From IMG/VR virus record IMGVR_UViG_2639762844_000001, positions 1-19,285 of that record: DNA of 19,285 nucleotides. One strand, written 5' to 3'. Below, one piece after another: positions 1,249 through 19,285 of the stretch. Position 1 is the stretch's first letter, and each line of letters begins with the position of its first letter. The notes under the pieces were generated by a model. It saw only the letters and a list, made by a program, of their open reading frames with translations, made no database searches and had not been told where the DNA came from. The stretch is from a virus (lineage: Duplodnaviria > Heunggongvirae > Uroviricota > Caudoviricetes). The position numbers were made by a program, and so were the translations under genes.

Positions 1249-1257
1249 ACGTAAACT

Positions 1258-2102: not shown

Positions 2103-2447
2103 TTAGTCCTTGCGTAGCTCGCTGATTCTTCTGTAAGTCTCTGGTGCTTTGTTTCCGTGTATCTTCATTTCAGACTTCAACAGAGCAACGAGAGAATCCC
2201 ATTCGTTGAGGATGCCTTTGAATGCCGGAACGCGCTTTGCAACCTTGTCGAATGAATCTCTGATTTCTGGAATCTGCTCAACAAGTGCAACGCATCGCCG
2301 GAAATCGGCTGCGTCATGTGGAGCACCGAAGCTATGACCATAGATATTCTTTTTCAGTCCACATGCGATTGAGGCAAGAGTTGCGCTACTGATGCCGACA
2401 TCGCCAGTCGATTGCCATTTCAAAACCTTCATAGCCAAATCTGACAT
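2103..2447 (-). CDS. Hypothetical prophage protein, 114 aa, function unknown
   Basis: Clean ORF co-oriented with torI and the lambda-like early genes, typical GC content; no family recognised from sequence (MSDLAMKVLKWQSTGDVGISSATLASIACGLKK...). Confidence 0.55.
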   Translation of the reverse strand: MSDLAMKVLKWQSTGDVGISSATLASIACGLKKNIYGHSFGAPHDAADFRRCVALVEQIPEIRDSFDKVAKRVPAFKGILNEWDSLVALLKSEMKIHGNKAPETYRRISELRKD

Positions 2448-2689
2448 TTCTTGTCTCCATAAAACAAAACTCGCCGTAGCGAGCTCAGATAAAAGAAATC
2501 CCCGTCAGTGCGAGGATGCTGTTCATTGCTGCTATACACTTTTTTGCTCTCAACGTAAGCGGTAGCCCATTCTGTTGGGTTGGTGCAGTTGCTTTTAGGA
2601 AATGCTATTTACCCCTTAAACGTCGGCTGAAAGAGCTAAAATCCATGCAAAAAATTTACGCAATTTTGTGTATTATTGTGCAGTAAGTA

Positions 2690-3292
2690 ATGAGCTATTT
2701 TCTGCGCAAAAAATGGATGGTAAATTTGTCCGGGGCAGGAAAAATTTTATGGGCGCTAAACATGAAAAAAGATTCGTATCCTTATTTGATTTGCATGACA
2801 GTTTCAGGGCTGATCTTTATTTTCCTTTTCTTCTGGTGGCGGGAAGATATCTACAGGGTCACGTTTCTTAATCAGAGTATATCCCACTATTACATTCTGT
2901 TTAGCATGGGAATAGCTTTTCTGTTATCTCTGTTTTGGGTTAAGAAGGGGATAGTAAAACAAAGCGGCTGGAAGAGTCTGTCAGCATACCTTAAGGTTTA
3001 TGCAGGGATGTGCATATTTTCTGGATTTTTTCTGATTATACCCCTTACAACACTAACTTATTTTTTGCCTGGAGAGACATCGTCTTATGTTGCACCGTAT
3101 CGGTATACTTCCGGTAGTTCAAAAAGTTGTTCTGGAGCTGAGGTGGATGACCCCGATCTACATGAGAATATTCGCATTTGCTATCCGTATGGCAATTATG
3201 AGTACGATAATATTATCTATGTTGAAAAGAAAATTAATACATTAGGTGCGGTAGTGACATATGCACAGACCGCGCGTGATGATACTGAATGA
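2690..3292 (+). CDS. AT-rich moron: predicted membrane protein (about 3 TM helices plus Cys/Tyr-rich C-terminal domain), function unknown
   Basis: Only plus-strand gene inside a minus-strand early operon; about 39 percent GC against about 50-55 percent for flanking genes; hydrophobic segments LICMTVSGLIFIFLFFWW, YYILFSMGIAFLLSLFWV, VYAGMCIFSGFFLIIPLTTLTYFL; hairpin terminator just downstream. Start uncertain (ATG 2690, alternative ATG 2762; neither has a strong SD). Confidence 0.6.
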   Translation: MSYFLRKKWMVNLSGAGKILWALNMKKDSYPYLICMTVSGLIFIFLFFWWREDIYRVTFLNQSISHYYILFSMGIAFLLSLFWVKKGIVKQSGWKSLSAYLKVYAGMCIFSGFFLIIPLTTLTYFLPGETSSYVAPYRYTSGSSKSCSGAEVDDPDLHENIRICYPYGNYEYDNIIYVEKKINTLGAVVTYAQTARDDTE

Positions 3293-3326
3293 GATAGTAT
3301 ATAGCGGGCAAGTTTTAGTTAATTTA

Positions 3327-3350
3327 TCGAGGTAATATAATTTACCTCGA
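3327..3350 (+). terminator. Hairpin (9-bp stem TCGAGGTAA / TTACCTCGA, 6-nt loop TATAAT) downstream of the moron gene
   Basis: Read directly; followed by a T-rich stretch (CTCGTTTATT). Sits in the gap between the convergent moron and orf73 genes, so it may act in both directions. Confidence 0.45.
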
Positions 3351-3502
3351 CTCGTTTATTCTGGTATTAATATTTCGCTTTACGATCGATTTTTATCTGA
3401 TGATATCATGCGGTTTTCATATACTGACTTACTGTCTTTTCTCCGTTAGCGATTTTCTCATGCTCAGCGATGATTTTATCTTTGGCTTCTAGTTAATTTC
3501 GC

Positions 3503-3724
3503 TCACTTCGAACCTCTCTGTTTACTGATAAGTTCCAGATCCTCCTGGCAACTTGCACAAGTCCGACAACCCTGAACGGCCAGGCGTCTTCGTTCATCTA
3601 TCGGATCGCCACACTCACAACAATGAGTGGCAGATATAGCCTGGTGGTTCAGGCGGCGCATTTTTATTGCTGTGTTGCGCTGTAATTCTTCTATTTCTGA
3701 TGCTGAATCAATGATGTCTGCCAT
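3503..3724 (-). CDS. TraR/DksA-family C4 zinc-finger protein (lambda Orf73-like), 73 aa
   Basis: CxxC...17...CxxC pattern (CCECGDPIDERRRLAVQGCRTCASC) and length typical of phage TraR homologues that bind RNA polymerase. Confidence 0.8.
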   Translation of the reverse strand: MADIIDSASEIEELQRNTAIKMRRLNHQAISATHCCECGDPIDERRRLAVQGCRTCASCQEDLELISKQRGSK

Positions 3725-3822
3725 CTTTCATTAATCCCTGAACTGTTGGTTAATACGCTTGAGGGTGAATGCGAACAATAAAAAAGGAGCCTGTAGCTCC
3801 CTGATAATTTTGCTTTTCATGT

Positions 3823-4038
3823 TCATCGTTCCTTAAAGACGCCGTTTAACATGCCGATCGCCAGGCTTAAATGAGTTGGTGTGAATCCCATCAGCGTTAC
3901 CGTTTCGCGGTGCTTCTTCAGTACGCTACGGCAAATGTCATCGACGTTTTTATCCGGAAAATGCTGTCTGGCTTTTTTGATTTCAGAATTAGCCTGACGG
4001 GCAATGCTGCGAAGGGCGTTTTCTTGCTGAGGTGTCAT
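3823..4038 (-). CDS. Small lambda-like early-left protein, function unknown (ORF extends to 4104; start placed at internal Met MTPQQ...)
   Basis: ORF in the same operon orientation, in the position of the small lambda b-region ORFs; exact lambda counterpart not recognised. Start codon choice is uncertain. Confidence 0.45.
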   Translation of the reverse strand: MTPQQENALRSIARQANSEIKKARQHFPDKNVDDICRSVLKKHRETVTLMGFTPTHLSLAIGMLNGVFKER

Positions 4039-4114
4039 TGAACAAGCCCCATGTCGGCAAGCATAAGCACACAGAATATGAAGCCCGCTGCCAGAAAAAT
4101 GCATTCAGTGGTTG

Positions 4115-4306
4115 TCATACCTGGTCTCTCTCATCTGCTTCTGCTTTCGCCACCATCATTTCCAGCTTTTGTGAAAGGGATGTGGCTAACGTATGAAATT
4201 CTTCGTCTGTTTCTACTGGTATTGGCACAAACCTGACTCCAATTTGAGCAAGGCTATGTGCCATCTCAATACTCGTTCTTAACTCAACAGGAGATGCTTT
4301 GTGCAT
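4115..4306 (-). CDS. Lambda orf63-like small protein (63 aa)
   Basis: Length and position, overlapping orf60a upstream of exo, match lambda orf63; collinearity with lambda holds at a constant offset from here through ea10. Confidence 0.6.
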   Translation of the reverse strand: MHKASPVELRTSIEMAHSLAQIGVRFVPIPVETDEEFHTLATSLSQKLEMMVAKAEADERDQV

Positions 4307-4461
4307 ACCGCCTCCCGTTTATTATTTATCTTCTCAGCCAGCCGCTGTGCTTTCAGGGGATTTCTGATAACAGAAAGGCCGGGAAATACCCAGCCTCGCT
4401 TTGTAACGGAGTAGACGAAAGTGATCGCGCCTACCCGGATATTATCGTGAGGATGCGTCAT
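4279..4461 (-). CDS. Lambda orf60a-like small protein (60 aa from MTHPHD...)
   Basis: Internal Met gives exactly 60 aa, ending 4 nt inside exo; matches the lambda arrangement. Confidence 0.55.
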
Positions 4462-5138
4462 CGCCATTGCTCCCCAAATACAAAACCAATTTCAGCCAGT
4501 GCCTCGTCCATTTTTTCGATGAACTCCGGCACCATCTCGTCAAAACTCGCCATGTACTTTTCATTCCGCTCAATCACGACATAATGCAGGCCTTCACGCT
4601 TCATGCGCGGGTCATAGTTGGCAAAGTACCAGGCATCTTTTCGCGTCACCCACATGCTGTACTGCACCTGGGCCATGTAAGCCGATTTTATTGCCTCGAA
4701 ACCACCGAGCCGGAATTTCATGAAATCCCGGGAGGTAAACGGGCATTTCAGTTCAAGGCCGTTGCCGTCACTGCATAAACCATCGGGAGAGCAGGCGGTG
4801 CGCATACTTTCGTCGCGATAGATGATCGGGGATTCAGTAATATTCACGCCGGAAGTGAATTCAAACAGGGTTCTGGCGTCGTTCTCGTACTGTTTTCCCC
4901 AGGCCAGCGCCTTAGCATTAACTTCCGGAGCCACACCGGTGCAAACCTCAGCCAGCAGGGTGTGGAAGTAGGATATTTTCATGTCAGGCCACTTCTTTCC
5001 TGAGCGGGGCTTTGCTATCACGTTGTGAACTTCTGAAGCGGTGATGACGCCGAGCCGTAATTTGTGCCATGCATCATCCCCCTGTTCGACAGCTCTCACG
5101 TCGATCCCGGTACGCTGCAGGATAATGTCCGGTATCAT
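4458..5138 (-). CDS. exo: Lambda exonuclease (Red alpha), 226 aa
   Basis: Near-identical to lambda Exo as recalled ([50 protein letters not shown]...); 4-nt overlap with bet as in lambda. Confidence 0.95.
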
Positions 5139-5920
5139 GCTGCCACCTTCTGCTCAGTGGCTTTCTGTTTCAGGAATCCAAGAGCTTTCACTGCTTCGGC
5201 CTGTGTCAGTTCTGACGATGCGCGAATGTCGCGGCGAAATATCTGGGAACAGAGCGGCAATAAGTCGTCATCCCATGTTTTATCCAGGGCGATCAGCAGA
5301 GTGTTAATCTCCTGCATGGTTTCATCGTTAACCGGAGTGATGTCGCGTTCTGGCTGACGTTCTGCAGTGTATGCAGTATTTTCGACAATGCGCTCGGCTT
5401 CATCCTTGTCATAGATACCAGCAAATCCGAAGGCCAGACGGGCACACTGAATCATGGCTTTATGCCGTAACATCCGTTTGGGATGCGACTGCCACGGCCC
5501 CGTGATTTCTCTGCCTTCGCGGGTTTTGAATGGTTCGCGGCGGCATTCATCCATCCATTCGGTAACGCAGATCGGATGATTACGGTCCTTGCGGTAAATC
5601 CGGCATGTACAGGATTCATTGTCCTGTTCAAAGTCCATGCCATCAAACTGCTGGTTTTCATTGATGATGCGGGACCAGCCATCAACGCCCACCACCGGAA
5701 CAATGCCGTTCTGCTTATCAGGGAAGGCGTAAATTTCTTTCGTCCACGGATTAAGGCCGTACTGGTTGGCGACGATCAGCAATGCGATGAACTGCGCATC
5801 GCTGGCATCACCTTTAAATGCCGTCTGGCGAAGAGTGGTGATCAGTTCCTGTGGGTCGACAGAATCCATGCCGACACGTTCAGCCAGCTTCCCTGCCAGC
5901 GTTGCGAGTGCTGTACTCAT
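5135..5920 (-). CDS. bet: Lambda Bet single-strand annealing protein (Red beta), 261 aa
   Basis: Near-identical to lambda Bet as recalled ([66 protein letters not shown]...). Confidence 0.95.
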
Positions 5921-5925
5921 CCGTT

Positions 5926-6342
5926 TTATACCTCTGAATCAATATCAACCTGGTGGTGAGCAATGGTTTCAACCATGTACCGGATGTGTTCTGCCATGCG
6001 CTCCTGAAACTCAACATCGTCATCAAACGCACGGGTAATGGCTTTTTTGCTGGCCCCGTGGCGTTGTAAATGATCGATGCAGAGTGATTCAAACAGGTGC
6101 TGGGGCAGACCTTTTTCCATGTCGTCTGCCAGTTCTGCCTCTTTCTCTTCACGGGCGATCTGCTGGTAGTGACGCGTCCAGCTCTGAGCCTCAAGACGAT
6201 CCTGAATGTAATAAGCGTTCATGGCTGAACTCCTGAAATAGCTGTGAAAATATCGCCCGCGAAATGCCGGGCTGATTAGGAAAACAGGAAAGGGGGTTAG
6301 TGAATGCTTTTGCTTGATCTCAGTTTCAGTATTAATATCCAT
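5926..6342 (-). CDS. gam: Lambda Gam, RecBCD inhibitor, 138 aa
   Basis: Near-identical to lambda Gam as recalled ([36 protein letters not shown]...). Confidence 0.95.
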
Positions 6343-6440
6343 TTTTTATAAGCGTCGACGGCCTCACGAAACATCTTTTCATCGCCAATAAAAGTGGCGA
6401 TAGTGAATTTAGTCTGGATAGCCATAAGTGTTTGATCCAT
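6297..6440 (-). CDS. kil: Lambda Kil host-killing protein (FtsZ inhibitor), 47 aa
   Basis: [47 protein letters not shown]; overlaps gam by 46 nt and cIII by 32 nt, as in lambda. Confidence 0.85.
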
Positions 6441-6573
6441 TCTTTGGGACTCCTGGCTGATTAAGTATGTCGATAAGGCGTTTCCATCCGTCACGTAATT
6501 TACGGGTGATTCGTTCAAGTAAAGATTCGGAAGGGCAGCCAGCAACAGGCCACCCTGCAATGGCATATTGCAT
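6409..6573 (-). CDS. cIII: Lambda CIII, FtsH (HflB) protease inhibitor, 54 aa
   Basis: [54 protein letters not shown] recognised as lambda CIII. Confidence 0.9.
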   Translation of the reverse strand: MQYAIAGWPVAGCPSESLLERITRKLRDGWKRLIDILNQPGVPKNGSNTYGYPD

Positions 6574-6645
6574 GGTGTGCTCCTTATTTATACATAACGA
6601 AAAACGCCTCGAGTGAAGCGTTATTGGTATGCGGTAAAACCGCAC

Positions 6646-7014
6646 TCAGGCGGCCTTGATAGTCATATCATCTGAATCAAATATTCCTGATGTATCGATA
6701 TCGGTAATTCTTATTCCTTCACTACCATCCATTGGAGGCCATCCTTCCTGACCATTTCCATCATCCCAGTCGAACTCACAAACAACACCATATGCATTTA
6801 AGTCTTTCGAAATTGCTATAAGCAGAGCATGTTGCGCCAGCATGATTAATACAGCATTTAATACAGAGCCGTGTTTATTGAGTCGGTATTCAGAGTCTGA
6901 CCAGAAATTATTAATCTGGTGAAGTTTTTCCTCTGTCATTACGTCATGGTCGATTTCAATTTCTATTGATGCTTTCCAGTCGTAATCAATGATGTATTTT
7001 TTGATGTTTGACAT
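6646..7014 (-). CDS. ea10: Lambda Ea10-like early protein (122 aa)
   Basis: Length and sequence match lambda ea10 as recalled; position between cIII and the ral-side region. Confidence 0.8.
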   Translation of the reverse strand: MSNIKKYIIDYDWKASIEIEIDHDVMTEEKLHQINNFWSDSEYRLNKHGSVLNAVLIMLAQHALLIAISKDLNAYGVVCEFDWDDGNGQEGWPPMDGSEGIRITDIDTSGIFDSDDMTIKAA

Positions 7015-7034
7015 CTGTTCATATCCTCATAGAT

Positions 7035-7060
7035 AAAAAATCGCCCTCACACTGGAGGGC
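7035..7060 (-). terminator. Intrinsic terminator on the leftward transcript (stem GCCCTC/GAGGGC, loop ACACTG, then U6), upstream of ea10; lambda tL2-like
   Basis: Read directly: 7043-7060 hairpin, A6 on the plus strand at 7035-7040 gives a U-tract on the minus-strand RNA. In lambda the equivalent terminators are overridden by N, which is absent here. Confidence 0.5.
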
Positions 7061-7226
7061 AAAGAAGATTTCCAATAATCAGAACAAGTCGGCTCCTGTT
7101 TAGTTACGAGCGACATTGCTCCGTGTATTCACTCGTTGGAATGAATACACAGTGTGAAGTGGTTTACTGAATTTGGCCACCTGAACAGAGGTGATATGCT
7201 CACCTCAGAACAACACAGGTGCCATA

Positions 7227-8374
<1,148 letters not shown>

Positions 8375-8404
8375 CTCGGTGGCCAGTTTTTGTTGACCAC
8401 TTCA

Positions 8405-8536
8405 ATCACTGCCGAGCTGGCGAACGGTCAGGTCTATGTACTGTCGTCTGCCTGGCTGCACGGCGAAGCGAACCATAATGCCGAAGAAGGCACGGTTGAT
8501 CTTGAGTTCCACGGTGAAGAAGGGGATTACCAGTAA
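8405..8536 (+). pseudogene. 3' fragment (last 43 codons) of a phage tail-tube-like gene truncated by IS911
   Basis: Open frame runs from the IS911 boundary (ITAELANGQVYVLSSAWLHGEANHNAEEGTVDLEFHGEEGDYQ*) with stop overlapping the next start (TAATG); no start codon, so it is a truncated remnant. Confidence 0.5.
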
Positions 8537-8805
8537 TGAAAGAGCTTGAGTTAAAGAAACCGATTATCGCTCATGGTGAGACACTCTCCGTACTGGAGTT
8601 TGATGAACCCACCGGGAAGGATGTCCGCGAGCTGGGGTATCCCTACCAGATGAATCAGGATGAGTCCGTCAGACTTCTGGCGCATGTGGTGTCGAAATAC
8701 ATTGTGCGGCTGGCGAAAGTGCCGCAAAGCTCTGTCGACCAGATGTCTCCGGCAGACCTGAATGCAGCGGCGTGGCTTGTGGCTGGTTTTTTCCTCCAGG
8801 CCTGA
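8536..8805 (+). CDS. Phage tail assembly chaperone (lambda G / Mu gp41 analogue), 89 aa
   Basis: Small acidic ORF directly upstream of the tape measure gene with a -1 overlapping extension frame; classic G/GT arrangement. Confidence 0.75.
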   Translation: MKELELKKPIIAHGETLSVLEFDEPTGKDVRELGYPYQMNQDESVRLLAHVVSKYIVRLAKVPQSSVDQMSPADLNAAAWLVAGFFLQA

Positions 8806-8954
8806 CGGCTGAATACCTCACTGATCGCTTCTTTGACTGCGCCAGCTACTGGCGCATTAATCCCTTCGAATTGCTGAATATGCCGATCAGTGAAATTCCC
8901 TTGCTGGTCAGTCAGGCAAACAGGATAGAGCAGGAGAAACGCACACATGGCTGA
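8536..8954 (+). CDS. Frameshift-extended tail assembly chaperone (G-T-like fusion, about 139 aa) via -1 slip
   Basis: The -1 frame is open from the slippery site to 8954 and ends overlapping the tape measure start (ATGGCTGA). Confidence 0.6.
8787..8793 (+). promoter_or_regulatory. -1 programmed frameshift slippery heptamer T TTT TTC in the tail chaperone gene
   Basis: Zero-frame codons GGT TTT TTC; the -1 frame gives ...W F F P P G L T... continuing 54 codons. Confidence 0.6.
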
Positions 8955-10782
8955 ATTTGAGCTTAAGGCGTTGATCACCGGTGTCGACAGGCTTTCTCCC
9001 GCGCTGTCGAAAATGCAAAAGAAAATCCGGGGATTTAAACGCCAGGCGGAAGAAGCGTCACAGGGTGGGCTGGCGCTTGGTGGCGGATTGGCAGCGGGGC
9101 TGACGCTTTCCCTGAAATCTTATGCCGATCAGGAAAACGCCGCTACCGGGCTGAAAGTCGCCATGATGGATGCGAACGGCGAGGTTGGAAAGAGCTTTCA
9201 GGACATCAATAAACTGGCTATTGGCCTGGGTAACCAGCTACCCGGTACAACGGCTGATTTCCAGAACATGATGCAGATGCTGGTGCGTCAGGGGATCCCG
9301 GCAGAAAACATTCTGGGTGGTGTGGGTAAAGCGACAGCTTATCTTGCGGTACAACTGAAAAAAACACCGGAAGCGGCTGCCGAGTTTGCAGCAAAGATGC
9401 AGGATGCTACCGGAACGGCCTCAGAAGACATGATGGGGCTGTTCGACACAATTCAGAAGGCGTTTTATCTGGGCGTTGACGACACCAACATGCTGTCATT
9501 CTTCACTAAAACCAGCTCTGTTCTGAAGATGGTGAATAAGGACGGTCTTCAGGCTGCACAGAGTCTTGCCCCCATCAGTGTCATGATGGATCAGATGGGG
9601 ATGAACGGGGAGTCGGCAGGTAATGCCCTGCGAAAAGTTATCCAGTCCGGATTAAGCGTTAAGAAAATTAGGGACGTCAATAAAGTCATGGCCCGCCAGA
9701 AACTCGGGATACAACTCGATTTTACTGATGGCAAAGGGAGTTTTGGCGGTCTTGATAACATGTTCAGGCAACTGGCAAAGTTGCGAAAACTGACCGACGT
9801 TAAGCGAACAGGCGTACTTAAGGCAATATTTGGTGATGATGCCGAAACCCTTCAGGTGGTCAATGCCCTGATCGATAAAGGAAAGGATGGCTACGATCAG
9901 ATCCAGCAGAAGATGAATAAACAGGCCAGCCTGAATAAACGTGTTCAGGCTCAGCTTGGTACGCTGTCCAACCTGTGGGAGGCAATGACGGGGACCGCAA
10001 CTAACGGTCTTGCAGCTATTGGCGGCGCATTTTCTGGTGACGCTAAAAATATCACGCAATGGCTGGGGGAGTTAGGGGAAAAATTCACAAAGTTTGCGGA
10101 TGAAAATCCCCGGGTTATTCGCGGCGTCGTCGGGCTTGCTGCCGGTCTTGCGATTCTGAAGCTGGGATTGATGGGCGTGGGCAGTGCCATCAGTATTGTC
10201 AGCAGGATCATGTCGATGACGCCGATTGGCATGATTGCGACGGCGATAGCCCTGGCTGCGGGATTAATTATCACTAACTGGGATGTTGTCGGACCTTATT
10301 TTAAGAAACTCTGGGAAACCATTGGTCCTTATTTTGAGGCTGGCTGGGAACTCCTTAAGAAAGTTTTTGCCTGGTCGCCGCTGGGGATGGTGATCAATAA
10401 CTGGGGGCCGGTTGTTAAGTGGTTTCAGGATATGTGGGACAAGCTGAAGCCGATTATTGAATGGTTTACCGACAGTTCCGGTGACACGGTCGATACCATT
10501 AACTCGGCGCAGTGGGGCGCGGGTGCTTATGATGCTTATGGGACGGGAATACCGGCACGGGGATACACTCCTTATCCGGCGGTAGATCTGGCTCAGTCAA
10601 ACAACGCCTCCGATGCCACAGGCCCGAATCCCTTCATGATTAACAAAGCTTCTGCGCCAAAAGTTGATGGTGAGATCAAGGTCTCTTTTGTGAATTCGCC
10701 TCCGGGTATGCGGGTTATGGAAACGCGAACCAGCGGTTTTGATGTCAGCCATGATGTTGGCTATACGCGCTTTGGCAGGTAA
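8947..10782 (+). CDS. Tail tape measure protein, 611 aa
   Basis: Long Ala/Gly/Gln-rich largely helical protein with C-terminal hydrophobic and Trp-rich segment, immediately after the chaperone frameshift pair. Confidence 0.9.
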   Translation: MAEFELKALITGVDRLSPALSKMQKKIRGFKRQAEEASQGGLALGGGLAAGLTLSLKSYADQENAATGLKVAMMDANGEVGKSFQDINKLAIGLGNQLPGTTADFQNMMQMLVRQGIPAENILGGVGKATAYLAVQLKKTPEAAAEFAAKMQDATGTASEDMMGLFDTIQKAFYLGVDDTNMLSFFTKTSSVLKMVNKDGLQAAQSLAPISVMMDQMGMNGESAGNALRKVIQSGLSVKKIRDVNKVMARQKLGIQLDFTDGKGSFGGLDNMFRQLAKLRKLTDVKRTGVLKAIFGDDAETLQVVNALIDKGKDGYDQIQQKMNKQASLNKRVQAQLGTLSNLWEAMTGTATNGLAAIGGAFSGDAKNITQWLGELGEKFTKFADENPRVIRGVVGLAAGLAILKLGLMGVGSAISIVSRIMSMTPIGMIATAIALAAGLIITNWDVVGPYFKKLWETIGPYFEAGWELLKKVFAWSPLGMVINNWGPVVKWFQDMWDKLKPIIEWFTDSSGDTVDTINSAQWGAGAYDAYGTGIPARGYTPYPAVDLAQSNNASDATGPNPFMINKASAPKVDGEIKVSFVNSPPGMRVMETRTSGFDVSHDVGYTRFGR

Positions 10783-10806
10783 TGAAAAATTAATCTGTTA
10801 ATGAGT

Positions 10807-10829
10807 CCCACTTCGGTGGGCTTTTTTAT
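10807..10829 (+). terminator. Candidate intrinsic terminator (CCCAC-TTCG-GTGGG plus T6) between the tape measure and DNA-circulation genes
   Basis: Read directly: 5-bp GC stem with TTCG tetraloop followed by CTTTTTTAT, 25 nt after the tape measure stop and just before the SD/ATG at 10843. Confidence 0.4.
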
Positions 10830-10842
10830 ATCCGGAGTTTAT

Positions 10843-12171
10843 ATGACGTGGAAAGACAGGCTTCAGGATGCGTCATTTCGAGGTGTGCCGTTTAAGGTTG
10901 AAGAAGAAAGTGCGGGAACCGGCCGTCGTGTGGAAACACACGAATATCCGAACCGCGACAAACCCTATACCGAAGATCTGGGAAAAGTCACTTTCCGCCC
11001 GTCCATCACAGCTTATGTGGTGGGAGATGACTGCTTTGACCAGCGCGATCGCCTGATTGAAGCGCTGAATAAACCCGGTCCCGGCACGCTTGTCCACCCG
11101 ACATATGGTGAGCTGAAAGTCTGTGTTGACGGGGAAGTTCGGGTCAGCACATCGAAAAGTGAAGGGCGTATTGTCCGCTTTGACCTGAAGTTTGTCGAAG
11201 CGGGAGAACTCTCTTACCCCACATCAGGTGCGGCGACGGCGCAGACGCTGATGTCATCCTGTTCTGCACTGGATGACTGCATCAGTGAAAGTTTCAGTGG
11301 TTTCAGTATCGATGGCGTGGCAGATTTTGTGCAGAACGACGTCGTCGGTAATGCCGGCACAATGCTTGGGTATGTTTCTGATGCGATGAAAGTGGTGGAT
11401 TCTGCCGTATCGGATGCCGCCAGGCTGTTGCAGGGGGATATCTCGGTACTTCTGCCGCCGCCATCGTCAGGCAAAAATTTCGTTGAACAGGTGCAGAAAA
11501 TGTGGCGTACCGGGAAACGCCTTTATGGTAACGCCAGCGACCTGGTCACCATGATCAAAACGCTTTCCGGTGTCAGCCTCGGCAGCGATCTGCAACCGCG
11601 CGGCGTCTGGAAAACGGACAGTAAAACCACCGCTACGGCGACGCAGCAGCGTAACGTGGTTGCCAGCATCCTTCGTACGACCGCAATCAGCGAAGCGGCG
11701 TATGCCGTCACCCGATTGCCTGCGCCAACAACTTCCGCGGTGATGCAGAATGCCGCAGTGGGGCAGGCAACAACACCCGCGCAGAGCACTGGCTGGCCTT
11801 CCGTCACGCATCCGGCACTGAACAATGCACCGGCGGTGAAAAGCACGGTTGACCTGCCGACGTGGGAAGAACTGACTGACATTCGCTACACACTGAATAC
11901 GGCAATTGATAAGGAGTTGTCCCGCACAACCAGTGATGCGCTGTTTCTGGCGCTGCGCCGGGTGAAAGCAGATCTGAATGCGGATATCAACACGCGCCTT
12001 GAACAGTCTGCACGGATCATTCAGCGCACGCCGGATGAGGTTTTACCCGCACTGGTGCTGGCGGCGACCTGGTTTGATAACGCGGCGCGTGACGCGGACA
12101 TTATCCGGCGTAATGCCATTACGCATCCCGGCTTTGTGCCGGTGATCCCTCTGAAGGTGCCAGTGCAATGA
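10843..12171 (+). CDS. Mu gp43-like DNA circulation protein (tail/baseplate), 442 aa
   Basis: N-terminal MTWKDRLQDASFRGVPFKVEEESAGTGRRVETHEYPNRD... typical of the Mu DNA-circulation N-domain; position after the tape measure gene; SD GGAG before the ATG at 10843 (the ORF track starts at an upstream ATG inside the terminator). Confidence 0.75.
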   Translation: MTWKDRLQDASFRGVPFKVEEESAGTGRRVETHEYPNRDKPYTEDLGKVTFRPSITAYVVGDDCFDQRDRLIEALNKPGPGTLVHPTYGELKVCVDGEVRVSTSKSEGRIVRFDLKFVEAGELSYPTSGAATAQTLMSSCSALDDCISESFSGFSIDGVADFVQNDVVGNAGTMLGYVSDAMKVVDSAVSDAARLLQGDISVLLPPPSSGKNFVEQVQKMWRTGKRLYGNASDLVTMIKTLSGVSLGSDLQPRGVWKTDSKTTATATQQRNVVASILRTTAISEAAYAVTRLPAPTTSAVMQNAAVGQATTPAQSTGWPSVTHPALNNAPAVKSTVDLPTWEELTDIRYTLNTAIDKELSRTTSDALFLALRRVKADLNADINTRLEQSARIIQRTPDEVLPALVLAATWFDNAARDADIIRRNAITHPGFVPVIPLKVPVQ

Positions 12172-13247
12172 ACGATAACGTCACGCTACGGGTAAATGGC
12201 CGGGAGTGGAATGGCTGGACATCGGTGCGCATCGGTGCCGGTATTGAACGGCTGGCGCGGGATTTCAGCGTGGAGATCACCCGCCAGTGGCCGGGAGATG
12301 AGGGTATCACCACGCTTCAGCCGCGCATTAAAAATGGTTCAAAAGTGGAAGTGCTGATTGGTGATGAGCTGGTGATCACCGGCTGGGTGGAGGCGACCCC
12401 CGTTCGTTACGATGCCCGTTCGGTCAGCACCGGTATTGCCGGACGTAGTCTGACTGCTGACCTGATTGACTGTGCAGCCGAACCGACACAGTTTAACGGA
12501 CGATCGCTGGTACAGATTGCGCAGGCGCTTGCTGCGCCTTTCGGCATTGAGGTGGTGAACAGCGATGCGCCGTCGGGTGTTATTCCGGATGTCCAGCCTG
12601 ATCACGGTGAAACGGTGATCGAGGTGATCAACAAAATACTCGGTCAGCAGCAGGCGCTGGCTTATGACGACCCGCACGGCAGGCTGGTGATTGGTGGTAT
12701 TGGCTCAACGCGGGCACATACCGCGCTGGTACTTGGGGAAAACATCCTTTCCTGTGATACGGAGAAGAGTATCCGGGAGCGGTTTTCAGTTTACCAGGTG
12801 GCGGGGCAGCGTGCCGGAAACGACGATGATTTCGGTGAGGCCACCACCACCGCGCTGCGGGCCCGCACAGAGGATGCATTTATTGCCCGTTACCGTCCGA
12901 TGTATATCAGGCAGACAGGGCAGGCTACGGGGGCAGGCTGTATTGCGCGTGCTGACTTTGAAGCCCGACAACGGGCGGCGCGGACGGATGAAACCACCTA
13001 TGTGGTGCAGGGCTGGCGACAGGGTAACGGTACGCTGTGGCAGCCCAACCAGCGGGTGATTGTCTTCGATCCGGTCTGTGGTTTCGACAATACCGAACTG
13101 CTTGTCTCGGAAGTCACGTTTACTCAGGACCAGAATGGCACCCTGACGGAAATCCGTGTCGGCCCACCTGATGCTTATCTGCCTGAACCCGAAGCCCCCG
13201 GCGCGCGGAAAAAGAAAAAAGCCAGAGTACAGGAGGACCCGTTCTGA
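12168..13247 (+). CDS. Mu gp44 (P)-like baseplate hub protein, 359 aa
   Basis: Gene order and size match the Mu/SfV/e14 tail module; start overlaps the previous stop (ATGA). Confidence 0.7.
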   Translation: MNDNVTLRVNGREWNGWTSVRIGAGIERLARDFSVEITRQWPGDEGITTLQPRIKNGSKVEVLIGDELVITGWVEATPVRYDARSVSTGIAGRSLTADLIDCAAEPTQFNGRSLVQIAQALAAPFGIEVVNSDAPSGVIPDVQPDHGETVIEVINKILGQQQALAYDDPHGRLVIGGIGSTRAHTALVLGENILSCDTEKSIRERFSVYQVAGQRAGNDDDFGEATTTALRARTEDAFIARYRPMYIRQTGQATGAGCIARADFEARQRAARTDETTYVVQGWRQGNGTLWQPNQRVIVFDPVCGFDNTELLVSEVTFTQDQNGTLTEIRVGPPDAYLPEPEAPGARKKKKARVQEDPF

Positions 13248-13795
13248 TGAAGGCGATTGAAACCATACAGCGACAACTCCTCGGCCTGATTGGGCGGGCG
13301 GTGGTGAAAAGCATCAGTGCCGCCACGAAATGTCAGACCGTGGATGTATCCCTGATTGCCGGTGAACCCAAAGCCGGGGTTGAACATCTTGAACCCTACG
13401 GTTTTACCGCAAGGGCAAACAGCGGTGCGGAAGCGGTGGTGTTGTTTCCGGATGGTGACCGTTCTCATGCGGTGGTTGTTACGGTGTCGGACCGGCGCTA
13501 CCGCCTGAAAGGGCTGCAGACGGGTGAGGTGGCTGTCTATGACGATCAGGGGCAGTCCGTGACGCTGACCCGGGAGGGGATCGTGGTGGACGGTGCAGGT
13601 AAAACGATCACGTTTCGCAATTCACCTAAAGCACGTTTTGAAATGGACCTGGAAGTGACAGGACAGGTGAAAGACCTGTGCGACTCCAGCGGCACCACCA
13701 TGTCAGCGATGCGGCTTGCCTATAACGGGCATCGTCACAGAGAGAACGGTCAGGGCAGTAACACCGACAAACCTGATAAAGCGATGGAGGCATGA
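13247..13795 (+). CDS. Baseplate assembly protein V-like (Mu gp45-like spike), 182 aa
   Basis: Size and order; translationally coupled (TGATGA) to the hub gene. Confidence 0.7.
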   Translation: MKAIETIQRQLLGLIGRAVVKSISAATKCQTVDVSLIAGEPKAGVEHLEPYGFTARANSGAEAVVLFPDGDRSHAVVVTVSDRRYRLKGLQTGEVAVYDDQGQSVTLTREGIVVDGAGKTITFRNSPKARFEMDLEVTGQVKDLCDSSGTTMSAMRLAYNGHRHRENGQGSNTDKPDKAMEA

Positions 13796-14220
13796 TGGAA
13801 CTGTGGCTGACGGTGAACGGTAAACGCACCTGCGCCAGCGCACCGCTGGATCCGCTGACCCGCGCCGTGGTGATTTCCCTGTTTACCTGGCGGCGGGCGG
13901 AGCCTGATGACAACGCCGACGTCCCGATGGGATGGTGGGGGGATACCTGGCCTGCGGTACAGAATGACCGTTACGGCTCCCGACTGTGGCTGCTTCAGCG
14001 CAGCAAACTGACCAATCAGCTGGTGCTGACGGTAAGGGGGTATATCCGCGAATGCCTGCAATGGATGATTGATGACGGCGTGGTGTCCCGTATTGATCTG
14101 GATATCCGCCGCACCGGGATTAATGAACTGGGTAACAGTATCACTCTCTGGCGTCGTGACGGACCGGTAATGATTTCTTTTGATGATCTGTGGAGTGCGA
14201 TAACGCATGGCGGACAGTGA
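13792..14220 (+). CDS. Mu gp46-like baseplate protein, 142 aa
   Basis: Size and order in the Mu-like baseplate cluster; start overlaps the upstream stop. Confidence 0.65.
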   Translation: MMELWLTVNGKRTCASAPLDPLTRAVVISLFTWRRAEPDDNADVPMGWWGDTWPAVQNDRYGSRLWLLQRSKLTNQLVLTVRGYIRECLQWMIDDGVVSRIDLDIRRTGINELGNSITLWRRDGPVMISFDDLWSAITHGGQ

Positions 14221-15265
14221 ATTTCAGCGCCCGACGCTGGCTGAAAATATCAGTATGCTCCGTAACGATTTATTCGCCAGGCTGGACGTCAGCGACACGC
14301 TCCGGCGCATGGATGAAGACGTGCGGGCAAAGGTGTATGCGGCGGCGCTGCATACGGTTTACGGGTACATCGATTATCTGGCAATGAACATGCTGCCTGA
14401 CCTGTGCGATGAGTCCTGGCTGGCGCGACATGCTGCGATGAAACGGTGTCCGCGCAAGGGGGCCACGGCTGCCAGCGGGTATATGCGCTGGGAAGGTGTC
14501 AGCGATGGCCTGAAGGTGACCGCCGGGAGTGTTATTCAGCGCGATGACCTGGTTCAGTATACTGCAACTGCCGATGCAACCAGCTCCGGTGGTGTCCTGC
14601 GCGTGCCGATCGCCTGCTCAAATGCAGGCGCGGTCGGTAACGCTGACGACGGTACGGCATTAATCCTGGTCACGCCGGTGAATGGTCTGCCGTCTTCCGG
14701 TGTGGCTGACACCCTGACAGGCGGATTTGATACTGAAGAGCTGGAAACGTGGCGCGCCCGCGTCATTGAGCGGTATTACTGGACGCCGCAGGGCGGGGCT
14801 GACGGGGACTATGTCGTATGGGCTAAAGAAGTGCCCGGCATTACCCGCGCATGGACATACCGTCACTGGATGGGAACGGGAACTGTCGGTGTGATGATTG
14901 CCAGCAGTGACCTGATTAATCCCATTCCGGAAGAATCAACGGAAACGGCGGCAAGACAACATATCGGGCCACTGGCCCCGGTGGCAGGCTCTGATTTGTA
15001 TGTGTTCAGGCCGGTGGCACATACGGTGGATTTTCATATCCGCGTGACGCCGGACACACCGGAAATACGGGCTGCCATCACCGCGGAGTTGCGTTCGTTC
15101 CTGCTGCGTGATGGTTATCCGCAGGGAGAACTGAAGGTATCGCGTATCAGTGAGGCGATTTCCGGTGCGAACGGGGAATACAGCCATCAGTTGCTTGCAC
15201 CGGCAGACAATATCTCCATTGCAAAAAATGAACTGGCGGTACTGGGGACGATTTCATGGACGTGA
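14207..15265 (+). CDS. Baseplate J-like protein (Mu gp47-like), 352 aa
   Basis: Size and order; overlapping start. Confidence 0.75.
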
Positions 15266-15840
15266 CAAACGATGATTACATCCGTCTGTTGTCGGCACTG
15301 TTGCCCCCCGGTCCGGCGTGGTCAGCCAGCGATCCGGCGATTGCCGGTGCGGCACCGTCATTAACCCGCGTTCATCAGCGTGCGGATGCCCTGATGCGGG
15401 AGCTGGATCCGCGCACCACCACTGAACTGATAAACCGCTGGGAGCGTCTGTGCGGTCTGCCGGATGAATGTATTCCCGCAGGGACACAGACCCTTCGCCA
15501 GCGTCAGCAACGGCTGGATGCGAAGGTTAACCTGGCGGGCGGCATCAACGAGAATTTTTATCTTGCACAGCTTGCTGCCCTGGGCAGACCAGACGCTACC
15601 ATCACGCGATACGACAAAAGCACGTTCACCTGCTCATCGGCCTGTACTGACGCGGTGAATGCGCCGGAATGGCGGTATTACTGGCAGGTCAACATGCCAG
15701 CCGCCACAAACACCACCTGGATGACATGTGGCGATCCCTGTGATTCCGCGCTGCGTATCTGGGGCGACACCGTTGTCGAATGTGTGCTTAACAAACTCTG
15801 CCCGTCGCATACCTACGTAATTTTTAAATATCCGGAGTAA
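15256..15840 (+). CDS. Mu gp48-like tail protein (YmfQ/DUF2313-like), 194 aa
   Basis: Size and order; Cys-rich C-terminus; directly precedes the tail fibre gene. Confidence 0.7.
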
Positions 15841-15843
15841 TCC

Positions 15844-16767
15844 ATGCATCGTATAGACACGAAAACCGCGCAGAAGGATAAGTTCGGCGCGGGTAAGAAC
15901 GGTTTTACCCGTGGTAACCCCCAGACTGGCACACCTGCCACCGATCTGGATGATGACTACTTTGATATGTTGCAGGAGGAGCTTTGCAGCGTGGTGGAGG
16001 CATCCGGTGCCAGCCTGGAGAAGGGGCGGCACGATCAGTTGCTTACCGCACTTCGCGCGCTGCTGTTAAGCCGCAAGAATCCGTTTGGCGATATCAAATC
16101 GGATGGCACTGTGCAAACGGCTCTCGAAAACCTTGGTTTGGGAGAAGCCACATTTGGCGCTCAAAATTGCGCTGTATTTGATAATGCAGGCGTCAGCACC
16201 TGGAATGTTCCTGACATAGTGAAAAAGGGCCGACGCGTCAGGGTGAAGGTTATCGGCGGTGGCGGGTCTGGCGGTTACCCGTCGATAAGCTCAACGAACG
16301 CTGCCGGTGGCGGCGGCGGTGGCGGCGGTGGTGTGAGCGAGTCCGTCATTGACTTAACAGGTATTGACACCGTCACAATCACTGTAGGCAGTGGTGGAAA
16401 AGGTCAAAATACGTCAGCAAGAAACGGAAATCCTGGTGGCACCAGTAGTTTTGGCACATATCTCTCGGCAACAGGCGGATATGGTGGAGGTCAGATATCC
16501 GGAGGAGTGGGGGGAGAAGGTGTGGGGGGGCAGATAAATACGTCTCTTGGCCCAGGCTCTCCTGGTGCATCAATGATAGCAGGCACTGATTCGGCTGTCG
16601 GAGGTAGTGGCGGTGGTCCTGGCGGGCATGGACAGGTTTTAGATTCGGCGGGGAATGTTGGCAGTAATGCAAAAGGTCCTGGCGGTGGTGGCGCTGGGTT
16701 GGCAACGAAAAAGACTGGCGGAGTTACTGGTGCTGGTCATAGCGGGATTGTAATTATTTATTGGTGA
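15844..16767 (+). CDS. Tail fibre protein with conserved N-terminal anchor and glycine-rich C-terminal region, 307 aa
   Basis: N-terminus [40 protein letters not shown]... resembles side tail fibre N-domains; the C-terminal half is Gly-rich (G9 run encoded by a GGN repeat near 16305-16332). Confidence 0.7.
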
Positions 16768-16777
16768 GGTATAAATT

Positions 16778-16945
16778 ATGTGGGCACGAATTGAAAACAA
16801 CGTGGTAATGGAGTTAACTGATATAGACCCAACGGGTAGATATCATGACTCGTTAATCTGGGTTGAATGCCCTCCTGACACTCAGCGTGGCTATATATAC
16901 AATAGCGGCGAATTTACGCCTCCACCGGAGGTGGCAGCCAGTTGA
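16778..16945 (+). CDS. Small ORF (55 aa) downstream of the tail fibre; possible tail fibre assembly or accessory protein, or remnant
   Basis: ATG 11 nt after the fibre stop; phage-like GC content. Below the 60-aa cutoff of the ORF track; identity not recognised. Confidence 0.35.
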   Translation: MWARIENNVVMELTDIDPTGRYHDSLIWVECPPDTQRGYIYNSGEFTPPPEVAAS

Positions 16946-17258
16946 TATCGAAGGCATTCAGAATGTTATGCCACGTTAAAAATTCTGCAGATTCATCACA
17001 TTATTCAGTCATTCTTCAAAGTAAATGGCTAATTACGACAATGTTAAATTTCAGCTTTGAAGTGCCATTGGCTATCTTTCTTGCATATTCATCAGTAAGT
17101 AGCTTCAATAGACTGCCTTCACATTCTGGAAGGCATATTTTGCTTTGGTCATCTTTCTGAATTTCCAGACACCTGACTCGATAGTGTCGAGATACTATCT
17201 TTACTCGTGAGAGTTAGGTTGGACCAGATTGCTTTATCGAAACTAAAGGATTGAGACA

Positions 17259-17297
17259 AGTGTCATTCTTTTTTAAGTCTTTTACCTGAATGACACT
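17259..17297. repeat. Perfect 10-bp inverted repeat (AGTGTCATTC / GAATGACACT) with 19-nt T-rich spacer, 50-90 nt downstream of the minus-strand cargo gene
   Basis: Read directly; may be a terminator or a binding site at the 3' side of the AT-rich gene. Confidence 0.4.
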
Positions 17298-17346
17298 AAA
17301 TCTTTAATACTACTGATAATTTCCTTTAGATATTCTTGTCGAGTGG

Positions 17347-17934
17347 TTATCTAAATGTTTTGATATACTTGAGATAATATCTGTGTCTGAAGTTGAACAA
17401 TACATCTCCCGGGTAAATATTACCATTGCTCTCAACGAGTCCTTTGTTTTCTTTCGAGGTGAAAGATATCGTTCTTTTTATTTTTAACTCATTAAATTTC
17501 ATTACATCCATGTAACTTCCATCTCTATCACACATTTTAAAAACAACTCTATCAAGGCCATGTGATGATATAAAAGATTGAAGTCTTTTTATTCTTCTAT
17601 TCCATTTATCCATGGCTTCTGCCCTTGAGTTATAATGCATAAAGTATATTTTTACTCCATCCACAAATGCAACGGGGAAATTATGCTCTGTATTAATGAA
17701 ATCGCTTTCAACAATGTCTCTTGATAAAAAATGCTCCAAATTAATACACATTTCAACAAAATCAGATGCTGTGATGTACAGGCCGATAAAGGGAGTATTA
17801 TATTCAAGTCCTATATTTTTATATAGTCTATAGCCCCAGCAGTTATTGGATACAATAGCGAAAGGACGGGTTATTAAAATTTTGTCCAGAAAGTCAAATA
17901 ATCCAGTTTTGTGCAATATCTTATCTACCAACAT
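17347..17934 (-). CDS. AT-rich integrase-proximal cargo gene, 195-aa soluble protein of unknown function; tentative resemblance to DUF1919 proteins of polysaccharide loci
   Basis: About 33 percent GC inside a roughly 50-55 percent GC prophage; SD AAGGA 7 nt before the ATG; co-oriented with intS 193 bp downstream of it, in the slot that holds gtrABS in K-12 KplE1. The motif SNNCWGY...GLEYNTPFIGLY matches my recollection of the DUF1919 hallmark; not verified. Confidence 0.65.
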   Translation of the reverse strand: MLVDKILHKTGLFDFLDKILITRPFAIVSNNCWGYRLYKNIGLEYNTPFIGLYITASDFVEMCINLEHFLSRDIVESDFINTEHNFPVAFVDGVKIYFMHYNSRAEAMDKWNRRIKRLQSFISSHGLDRVVFKMCDRDGSYMDVMKFNELKIKRTISFTSKENKGLVESNGNIYPGDVLFNFRHRYYLKYIKTFR

Positions 17935-18127
17935 GTCATAATCCTTATGTTGTTTTATAGTGTATAATGTGAGTTTGTTATTTTTTAAATTGCAATTAAA
18001 TATTAGATAAATTTAATTGTCGTACATATAGAATATTATATGAATAAACCCAAAAAAACAACCAACCTAAAGGCTTTACTCTCGCCATATTATGTGAGTT
18101 GGATAATTGTACGGCGATATAGGTGGA

Positions 18128-19285
18128 TCACACCACCTTTTCATCGATCCAATCCGCCCACCATTGCATCATTTCTCTGCGCTTATCGAGATACTGAGCA
18201 TGGTTGTAAATCCCGCGCACAGATCCGCCGTTGGCATGTGCCAGTTGCATTTCAATGGCGTCTGCAGGCCATTCGTGCTCGTTCATAATCGTGCTGAATT
18301 CATGCCTGAATCCGTGACCGCTTTCCAGACCCTCATAGCCGATTTGTTTGATCACAAGTAGCACCGCGTTCTCGCAGATTGGCTTTTTCTTATCGTTGCG
18401 CCCGGCAAAAACAAACTCTGATACTGGTTTGGTGATAGAGCTTAGCGTAGTGAGAAGTTCAACTACCTGGTCTGACATAGGAACCACATGAATTTTGCGA
18501 CCCTTCATCACACTGGCGTCGATGGTGATAATCCTGTTTTCAAAATCGACGTTCTTCCATAGCATGGAACGAAGCTCTTTCGTTCTTAGGGCTGTGTAGC
18601 GTAAAACTTTTGTCGCAATGAGCGATACGATACTTCCTGAAAATGTTGCAAGTGCTTTGTTGAATGCCGGGATCTGGTCTGCAGGTAAAAACGGGAAGTT
18701 CTTCTTGCGGTATCCTTTCATGGCGTCTGCAAGGTCAGGTGCCGGGTTATATTTAGCCCTTCCGGTGACAATAGCGTAACGGAAAACCTCGCCGCATCTT
18801 CTGCGGGCTTTGTTGGCTCGCTCCATTGCACCGCGATCTTCAAATCTGCGGATTACTTCCAGCAGTTGCATCGGCTCAATATCCTGAATTTCAAGGCTGC
18901 CGATGATGGGTAAAATGTCGTCATCAAACATTTTTGCAAGTTCAGTCGCATACCCTACTGACCATACTTGCTTCTTGTGATCGTACCATTCCTTGTAAAT
19001 CGCACTAAAGGAATTGTTGTTAGACGAAGCCTTTTTCGCCTTTACCGGATCGATGCCAACCGAGATATCTTTCCTCGCAGTCCATGCTTTACCCCTTGCC
19101 TCCTGCAAAGTCATAAGCGGATATTTTCCGACGGTCAGGATTTTCTCCTTACCGCCAATCTTGTAGCGAAGCTGCCATACCTTTTTCCCGGATACAGGCA
19201 CATAAAGGTACAGACCATTACCATCGAGAAGGCGGTATGGTTTTTCTTTCGGCTTTGCTGCTTCAATCTGCTTAACGGTGAGCAT
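18128..19285 (-). CDS. intS: P4-type tyrosine integrase of the argW prophage (IntS-like), 385 aa
   Basis: Near-identical to K-12 IntS as recalled (MLTVKQIEAAKPKEKPYRLLDGNGLYLYVPVSGKKVWQLRYKI...); catalytic-domain residues (R...HxxR...Y) present; the start codon is the last base of the window, so promoter, att site and argW are outside. Confidence 0.95.
   Translation of the reverse strand: MLTVKQIEAAKPKEKPYRLLDGNGLYLYVPVSGKKVWQLRYKIGGKEKILTVGKYPLMTLQEARGKAWTARKDISVGIDPVKAKKASSNNNSFSAIYKEWYDHKKQVWSVGYATELAKMFDDDILPIIGSLEIQDIEPMQLLEVIRRFEDRGAMERANKARRRCGEVFRYAIVTGRAKYNPAPDLADAMKGYRKKNFPFLPADQIPAFNKALATFSGSIVSLIATKVLRYTALRTKELRSMLWKNVDFENRIITIDASVMKGRKIHVVPMSDQVVELLTTLSSITKPVSEFVFAGRNDKKKPICENAVLLVIKQIGYEGLESGHGFRHEFSTIMNEHEWPADAIEMQLAHANGGSVRGIYNHAQYLDKRREMMQWWADWIDEKVV

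Follow-up and report, generated by a model that had tools for sequence, protein, structure and literature searches.

The stretch of viral DNA analyzed here (hereafter the window, 19,285 bp) is identical to the argW region of Escherichia coli ECC-1470, a bovine mastitis isolate (Ont:H2), and contains a defective prophage of ~17.7 kb that is comparable to CPS-53 of E. coli K-12. The features discussed below are the following, with coordinates counted from the first base of the window.

1–1248: cscB, chromosomal.
1690–1704, no strand: attR core, a 15-nt exact match to the argW terminus, marking the far prophage end.
1778–1978: torI.
6528–6586: cIII thermoregulator RNA, the only Rfam match.
15844–16767, plus strand: tail fiber with a glycine-rich C-terminal domain (PF21722 and PHROG tail-fiber families), convergent with the DUF1919 gene.
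16778–16945, plus strand: 55-aa stub of a tail-fiber-assembly (tfa) gene (ORF with a weak PHROG tail-fiber match), cut where the insertion sequence (IS) remnant starts.
16946–17316, minus strand: internally deleted IS256-family element, both ends kept, ~930 bp of the transposase gene lost.
17259–17268 and 17288–17297, minus strand: 10-bp perfect inverted repeat with a 19-nt loop, conserved in the intact IS256-family element.
17347–17934, minus strand: DUF1919-family coding sequence with an ATG start; product of 195 aa, 23.2 kDa, pI 9.15, cytoplasmic and soluble.
17935–18092, minus strand: AT-rich leader (24% GC), a putative promoter region that arrived with the cargo.
17942–17946, minus strand: Shine-Dalgarno AAGGA (read on the minus strand), 7 nt upstream of the DUF1919 ATG.
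18128–19285, minus strand: IntS tyrosine integrase, 385 aa (Pfam Phage_integrase, Phage_int_M, and Arm-DNA-bind_3; RefSeq intS beside tRNA-Arg).

The attR core is equivalent to pawZ of K-12, likewise a 15-bp remnant, and torI is followed by a lambda-like early block of exo, bet, gam, kil, and cIII. The tail-tube gene has been cut by a frameshifted ISEc52, downstream of which lie a Mu/e14-like tail module (tape measure, baseplate, YmfQ, and the glycine-rich fiber) and then the cargo and intS. This argW prophage has lost its head, terminase, lysis, and repressor genes. The intS gene lies upstream of the DUF1919 gene on the same minus strand, and in the interval from intS to the tail fiber no ORF of at least 60 aa other than the DUF1919 gene has family support.

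The cargo module can be delimited at approximately 16950 and 18092, as phage homology stops at 16949 and restarts at 18092–18094. The first border is seen in the fiber/tfa region of a P2-like element (L009), whose homology to the window ends at 16949, and the second in other IntS prophages, whose homology resumes just at 18092–18094. The earlier note on this DNA had described the content of the module as single-gene cargo; there is one gene, but the module also holds a dead IS256-family element that truncated tfa, the start of the remnant coinciding exactly with the point at which tfa is reduced to its stub. Positions 16946–17161 and 17231–17316 of the remnant share 73 and 77% identity with positions 601–822 and 1814–1901, respectively, of the L033 sequence from E. 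coli plasmid NZ_CP148283.1, in which the 1.3-kb comparison element carries a 400-aa ORF annotated by RefSeq as an IS256-family transposase. Since the transposase is deleted, this is the remnant of an IS256-family element and not a functional member; the transposase start codon in the window has been mutated from ATG to TTG. The inverted repeat that had been noted downstream of the DUF1919 gene does exist, but it is conserved in the intact element, where, read along the transposase strand, its pairing takes in the AGGA ribosome-binding site and the region of the start codon, and thus it belongs to the IS and not to the gene. Its candidacy as the DUF1919 terminator was rejected on this ground and on the absence of a T-tract on the minus strand. 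A 72-aa plus-strand ORF (16942–17160) with a weak STT3 match (E = 0.019, below the cutoff) was also discarded as spurious, as it runs antisense to the transposase C-terminus. Near the other border, strain Res13-Lact-PEA14-20 carries an IS1 at 18078–18086, flanked by a 9-bp duplication and lying 6 bp inside the module boundary, which spares the DUF1919 gene and ~150 bp of its leader.

The composition of the cargo gene is distinct from that of its surroundings. Its GC content is 0.320 (GC3 0.316), compared with 0.508 (51%) across positions 1–16931 of the window and 0.475 in intS, and the 158 bp immediately upstream (17935–18092) have a GC content of just 0.241. Across 1000 shuffles of the AT-rich module, stop-free runs averaged 71 codons and never passed 143, against 221 codons in the actual sequence. 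The protein has a maximal 19-residue Kyte-Doolittle mean of 1.15 and no transmembrane segment, and its predicted structure is a compact alpha/beta model. These measurements bear out the initial description of a strongly AT-rich gene with a soluble 195-aa product, its own Shine-Dalgarno, and an AT-rich upstream region. The leader includes a perfect −10 hexamer (TATAAT, 18035–18040) with a weak −35, and a consensus scan listed no minus-strand promoter under its criteria. Of the features expected of a moron, the gene shows a location in a prophage accessory slot and a composition unlike that of the phage backbone, and the TATAAT hexamer would be a candidate element for transcription independent of the late operon.

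The slot itself is informative. The gene order here is argW-intS-DUF1919-IS remnant-tfa stub-tail fiber, and that of K-12 is argW-intS-yfdG(gtrA)-yfdH(gtrB)-yfdI(gtrS)-yodE-tfaS'-yfdK, from which it follows that the DUF1919 gene occupies the gtrABS position, as had been proposed from the letters alone. Homologs of GtrA, GtrB, and GtrC are absent from the slot of the window, as judged by ORFs and Pfam. The earlier note had called for a survey of how variable this slot is, and among 5,426 complete genomes the K-12-type intS-gtrA junction was found in 522 and the DUF1919 arrangement at argW in eight; strain XJ34 carries an S24 peptidase, gtrA, gtrB, and a 508-aa gene in the slot, and in strain ZY22049 the slot is empty, with a P22-like tailspike directly beside intS. 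The gtrABS genes of K-12 (CPS-53/KplE1) and the gtrABC genes of P22/SfV-type phages are, like the DUF1919 cargo, low-GC accessory DNA, and gtrABS shares with it the slot between intS and the tail-fiber/tfa genes of the argW prophage. Of the gtr products, two are membrane proteins and the third is a GT2 enzyme; the system uses Und-P-glucose and works on the periplasmic side. The expected outcome would be alike, namely a lysogen that modifies its O-antigen/LPS receptor, but the means would differ, with three genes in one case and one soluble cytoplasmic protein of an unrelated, uncharacterized family in the other.

The cargo is rare and nearly uniform. The exact protein is encoded on 472 contigs, all of them E. 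coli, and the only variants seen were V178A, N181K, and D109N, each a substitution on a single contig. The ORF is intact on the 472 contigs and in all eight complete-genome carriers. Foreign composition, a presence in 8 of 5,426 genomes, and nearly a single allele fit the earlier view that this is recently acquired cargo. Six of the eight complete-genome carriers have a common O-antigen cluster that is itself found in only 12 of the 5,426 genomes; the remaining two carriers are of a different O-type, and the DUF1919 gene is missing from six genomes that do have this cluster. Clonal descent is the simplest reading of this sharing, and since it explains the association equally well we do not take the association as functional evidence. 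The ratio dN/dS is uninformative because DUF1919 alleles are either identical or ~50% diverged. INPHARED phages yielded only two weak tblastn matches, in gut phage contigs that lack annotation, and no INPHARED phage matched the module at the DNA level.

The family assignment, first suggested by a short motif associated with DUF1919 proteins, is now firm. In the profile search that had been recommended, the protein matched Pfam PF08942 (DUF1919) over residues 18–164 with E = 3.5e-33 and 115.2 bits against a cutoff of 25; the defense HMMs of PADLOC-DB v2 gave 0 families at E ≤ 1, and there was no match in PHROGs or NCBIfam. RefSeq already annotates the gene as a “DUF1919 domain-containing protein.” With a threshold of E ≤ 1e-3, an exhaustive HMMER search returned 2,145 representative clusters; at E ≤ 1e-30 there were only 8, which makes the argW allele of E. 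coli an outlier of a large family. The query nonetheless carries the family-invariant residues N31, C32, G34, P48, F98, H100, Y101, K110, W111, R114, and R117, which form the pattern N-C-x-G after strand 1, NTPF, F-x-H-Y, and K-W-x-R-R-x-x-R. In column counts from an alignment of 101 sequences, P48 and R114 are conserved in 101/101, C32 and F98 in 100/101, H100 in 99/101, Y101, W111, and R117 in 98/101, N31 in 97/101, and K110 in 91/101, and position 106 is acidic in 93/101. Cys32 and His100 are candidate catalytic residues, accompanied by a basic helix (K110/R113/R114/R117), a combination that suggests covalent catalysis on a phosphorylated substrate.

The three-dimensional fold of the cargo protein is the same as that of 2g6t, a PDB entry for an uncharacterized Clostridium acetobutylicum protein (“homolog of HI1244”) and the sole solved DUF1919 member. 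With 23–25% identity and no known function, 2g6t adds no mechanism; it also has an additional N-terminal domain of ~100 residues (C2185-like_N in relatives) which the cargo protein lacks. The DUF1919 fold is an orphan fold. Foldseek searches of BFVD gave weak matches (probability 0.93–1.0, TM ~0.4) to giant-virus proteins named “putative papain-like cysteine peptidase,” and these matches are compatible with a Cys/His enzyme but prove nothing. No functional study of DUF1919, PF08942, HI1244, 2G6T, COG3955, or IPR015037 was found in the searchable literature, which yielded just three incidental mentions.

The company kept by the family points to glycan biosynthesis. DUF1919 domains are fused to GT2 (at least eight proteins), Glyco_tranf_2_5, GT32, a Wzx flippase domain, a methyltransferase, and an FrhB/Fe-S domain. 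In a census of the nearest gene on each side across 70 species-representative distant genomes (126 proteins), approximately one third of neighbors were glycosyltransferases (23/126 GT2 and 19/126 GT1/GT4), hexapeptide acetyltransferases (4/126) and sugar-nucleotide epimerases/dehydratases were also present, and no phage family was among the top 25 families. In one Flavobacteriia lineage the gene is fixed in the chromosome between ruvX and def. The closest relatives of the cargo protein (38–45% identity) are all from Enterobacterales. Among their non-phage contexts, the DUF1919 gene lies beside waaA with a hexapeptide transferase upstream in Pectobacterium fontis, has a Kdo hydroxylase on one side and a GT25 LPS glycosyltransferase on the other in an Enterobacteriaceae metagenome-assembled genome, and is found inside a Wzx/EpsG/LicD/CDP-ribitol cluster in Proteus faecis; it adjoins DegT, GNAT, and GT32 genes in P. 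carotovorum and GT8 in Xenorhabdus yunnanensis, and in Edwardsiella it forms a lone low-GC islet. Published mentions place a DUF1919 member in the eps cluster of L. johnsonii, and a DUF1919 domain in Cps17F of the Actinobacillus pleuropneumoniae serovar 17 capsule locus (PMC5901230). The acquisition of this domain sets the serovar 17 locus apart from that of serovar 8, and the recombination of Cps17F into the serovar 8 locus accompanies a serologically new capsule (PMC5901230). Cps17F is therefore the nearest published hint that DUF1919 may alter glycan antigenicity, although it is a fusion protein of a chromosomal capsule locus whereas the cargo gene is phage-borne, and neither the structure of the K17 capsule nor the activity of Cps17F was found in the literature searched.

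A second line of evidence comes from other prophages. In approximately nine prophage contexts the DUF1919 gene is low-GC cargo convergent with a tail-fiber or tailspike gene, and in every prophage case its GC content lies 8–22 points under that of its locus. The gene for one homolog, 50% identical to the cargo protein (loci L006 and L007), runs convergently toward a Tfa gene, whose identity to YfdK of K-12 is 50%, and toward a tail fiber whose N-terminus is 77% identical to that of the fiber in the window. At L017, in an Izhakiella capsodis prophage (L015/26/42), and at L024/25/27/43 the gene is convergent with Gp10_C or Phage_fiber_2 fibers, and at L027 an Oac-type Acyl_transf_3 gene lies 0.9 kb away. 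In an Arsenophonus nasoniae phage (L022/39), GT32 and then DUF1919 face Caudo_TAP and a Gp53-like fiber; in a P2-like prophage of Xenorhabdus poinarii, tail-fiber genes flank DUF1919, which is accompanied by GT8, GT4, and a sulfatase-family gene; a Providencia homolog has a Gp53-like fragment and a broken integrase nearby; and in two prophages with homologs of 34–35% identity, DUF1919 is set against an SGNH-esterase tailspike. By analogy with known systems, this position next to tail fibers and this low-GC signature are those of conversion genes that modify receptors. Relative to the searchable literature, the role as an alternative to gtrABS cargo, the recurrent tail-fiber pairing, and the orphan fold with its Cys/His signature are new; the family itself is already in Pfam.

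Our best explanation is that the gene is lysogenic-conversion cargo and that its product works in the cytoplasm on an intermediate of an envelope glycan, with the LPS core or O-unit as the likeliest target, and we assign this reading a probability of roughly 0.55. In the proposed mechanism, a horizontally acquired moron, which would be expressed from its own AT-rich leader, would encode a soluble cytoplasmic DUF1919 enzyme for envelope-glycan assembly. Its target, which we infer to be LPS, would most likely be core or O-antigen intermediates at the inner face of the membrane. Catalysis may proceed via the Cys32-His100 pair, possibly with the acidic residue at position 106, and the basic helix could hold a substrate that bears phosphate, for example a CoA thioester, a nucleotide-activated donor, or the undecaprenyl-diphosphate carrier. 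The surface polysaccharide of the lysogen would be changed as a result, that is, lysogenic conversion, with the masking of receptors against related phages as a likely benefit. On account of the Cys/His pair we lean weakly toward the transfer or removal of an acyl-type substituent as somewhat likelier than sugar transfer, and this is the weakest step of the model. The earlier note had left the choice between a surface-polysaccharide modification gene and an anti-phage gene undecided; glycosyltransferase fusions and LPS/O-antigen neighborhoods favor the first, and the lack of a PADLOC match speaks against the second, although phage exclusion is possible as a consequence of surface-polysaccharide modification.

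Two known systems frame this mechanism. The Oac-type O-antigen acetyltransferases of serotype-converting phages, such as Oac of Sf6 (Pfam Acyl_transf_3), resemble the DUF1919 gene in being lysogenic-conversion cargo of one gene, placed toward the tail/int end of the prophage, but Oac is a polytopic membrane protein, whereas the DUF1919 protein has no transmembrane segment and no similarity to PF01757 (Acyl_transf_3), which gave no Pfam match. Hexapeptide-repeat O-acetyltransferases such as WbbJ of rfb clusters are soluble, cytoplasmic enzymes that modify lipid-linked O-units before these are flipped. Their mode of action is the one envisaged here for DUF1919; their left-handed beta-helix fold, however, is unrelated, and DUF1919 has the Cys/His signature and no recognized acetyl-CoA-binding motif.

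A silent passenger is the first alternative to weigh, in which an intact but irrelevant hitch-hiker, brought or fixed by IS activity, sits in a decaying prophage and is unexpressed or finds no substrate in E. coli. The state of the element lends this some weight, with its head, terminase, lysis, and repressor genes gone, its tail-tube gene cut by ISEc52, and a dead IS256-family element abutting the DUF1919 gene and truncating tfa. Moreover, the consensus scan found no promoter, the argW locus lacks the partner glycosyltransferase seen at other DUF1919 loci, and the near-monomorphic gene leaves any signal of selection unreadable. Nonetheless, the ORF has stayed intact in 8/8 complete genomes and 472 contigs while adjoining phage genes decayed, all family-invariant residues are kept, the Shine-Dalgarno is good, and the leader is retained even where IS1 has landed 6 bp inside the module boundary. 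The recurrence of the placement across prophages, with alleles only 40–53% identical, also argues against mere hitch-hiking, and we consider this account unlikely.

Instead of LPS, the target could be another envelope glycan, for example enterobacterial common antigen, colanic acid, capsule, or peptidoglycan precursors. The family does occur in exopolysaccharide, capsule, and teichoic-like clusters (L. johnsonii eps, A. pleuropneumoniae cps, a LicD/Glyphos_transf neighborhood, and the glycosyltransferase-rich census), and no feature of the E. coli locus names the substrate. The closest Enterobacterales relatives, however, are in LPS-core/O-antigen contexts (waaA, Kdo hydroxylase, GT8, GT25, and Wzx/EpsG). 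In addition, tail-fiber-adjacent prophage cargo, of which gtrABC and oac are examples, classically targets the LPS receptor. A different glycan target is accordingly a rather improbable variant.

We regard as very unlikely an intracellular anti-phage or abortive-infection protein with no glycan link, for example a cysteine peptidase-like effector. The accessory slot, the near-invariant Cys/His pair, the weak giant-virus peptidase matches (TM ~0.4), and a Providencia homolog situated among McrBC, BrxR, and WYL-type genes would suit such a protein; it is disfavored by the absence of any PADLOC match at E ≤ 1 and by a family context that points elsewhere, as DUF1919 is overwhelmingly embedded in or fused to glycan-biosynthesis genes and has become fixed between ruvX and def in a Flavobacteriia sublineage, unlike the behavior of a defense gene. 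A structural or tail-fiber accessory protein (chaperone or virion enzyme) is scarcely credible despite the adjacency to tail-fiber and tail-fiber-assembly genes in many phages, given a GC content very unlike that of structural genes, the lack of a PHROG match, and the wide occurrence of DUF1919 in non-phage polysaccharide clusters.

Returning to lysogenic conversion by a glycan-acting enzyme, a broader proposal can be made, which we hold tentatively and with less than even confidence. DUF1919 may represent an unrecognized class of phage-borne, single-gene, cytoplasmic LPS-modifying enzymes, either serotype-converting or receptor-masking, with an orphan fold and Cys-His covalent catalysis, carried as AT-rich cargo of Enterobacterales prophages and paired with a receptor-binding tail fiber, with E. 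coli argW as a natural gtrABS swap.

Prophage-encoded LPS changes are a driver of serotype diversity, of the host range of phages, and of escape from vaccines, and the known toolkits for such changes are gtrABC, Oac-type acyltransferases, and Wzy/Iap-type systems. Even if the gene were inert, the locus would still record the IS remodeling of the cargo slot of a decaying prophage. If the interpretation is true, LPS modification would gain a new tool, a soluble module of one gene drawn from a family that numbers more than 2,000 representative clusters, and an orphan fold would gain its first tractable assay, consisting of one gene, an E. coli host, and a read-out of LPS and phage adsorption. The recurrent pairing with tail fibers would in turn offer a rule for finding more receptor-modifying cargo.

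The prophage is a mosaic remnant from which the head, terminase and lysis genes are absent. Its lambda-like early region is connected with the tail module by ISEc52, which interrupts the tail-tube gene. The features of the window are as follows:

1-1248: chromosomal cscB (sucrose-type MFS transporter), within which the window begins
1690-1704: attR core, 15 nt, argW-derived, TGGTGTCCCCTGCAG
1778-1978, minus strand: torI
6528-6586, minus strand: match to Rfam RF01804 (lambda cIII thermoregulator RNA element) at 88.5 bits, the sole Rfam match across the window
7227-8396: ISEc52, IS3-family, frameshifted (ORFs 7191-7529 and 7556-8374)
16778-16945: tail-fibre-assembly (tfa) stub, 55 aa, cut precisely where the next feature starts
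16946-17316: internally deleted IS256-family element, between the tfa stub and the stop codon of the DUF1919 gene

The IS256-family remnant beside the DUF1919 gene has lost approximately 930 bp of its transposase while retaining both ends, and the transposase start codon has changed from ATG to TTG. Related fragments are borne by 202 plasmids, chiefly from Salmonella. With tfa truncated at this remnant, the prophage would therefore produce no normal fibres even were the rest intact. The tail-fibre ORF itself (15844-16767) is a single continuous open frame of 307 aa in the window sequence, and the RefSeq annotation divides the same interval in two, labelling one part "stfP pseudogene" and the other "glycine-rich domain-containing protein". 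A terminator-like hairpin lies on the plus strand within the remnant (17114-17135), with a 7-bp stem followed by TATTTTGCTT; it could block read-through from the tail operon that would run antisense into the DUF1919 gene. On the other side of the cargo, one carrier (L032, NZ_CP062871.1) has acquired an IS1 at the equivalent of window positions 18078-18086, 6 bp inside the cargo boundary and with a 9-bp target duplication, which splits intS from the DUF1919 leader and leaves the DUF1919 gene untouched.

A giant-virus MAG (L030, 5995-6546) encodes a DUF1919 relative at 31% identity that adjoins an RNA-polymerase subunit gene, and a structural search of BFVD returned weak neighbors only, all of them giant-virus "papain-like peptidase" proteins.

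In two prophages (L028, 6600-9026; L029, 6594-8951) DUF1919 is convergent with a tailspike of 785-808 aa carrying an SGNH/GDSL esterase domain, which hints that DUF1919 is tied to acetylated polysaccharide receptors. Six of the eight DUF1919 carriers also have in common a rare O-antigen cluster (that of the bovine mastitis isolate ECC-1470; L036, 20300-26500), which is present in only 12 of 5,426 genomes, is non-typable in silico and contains GT25, GT2 and three hypotheticals. This may reflect clonality or a functional link. A GT32 gene (Gly_transf_sug/Caps_synth) adjoins DUF1919 in three loci, namely an Arsenophonus nasoniae phage locus (L022, 834-2334), L018 (1038-2242) and L046 (7917-9611), and the two are fused in one protein, P0132. 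Together, this adjacency and fusion suggest that GT32 and DUF1919 form a two-enzyme unit, with only the DUF1919 half present in E. coli.
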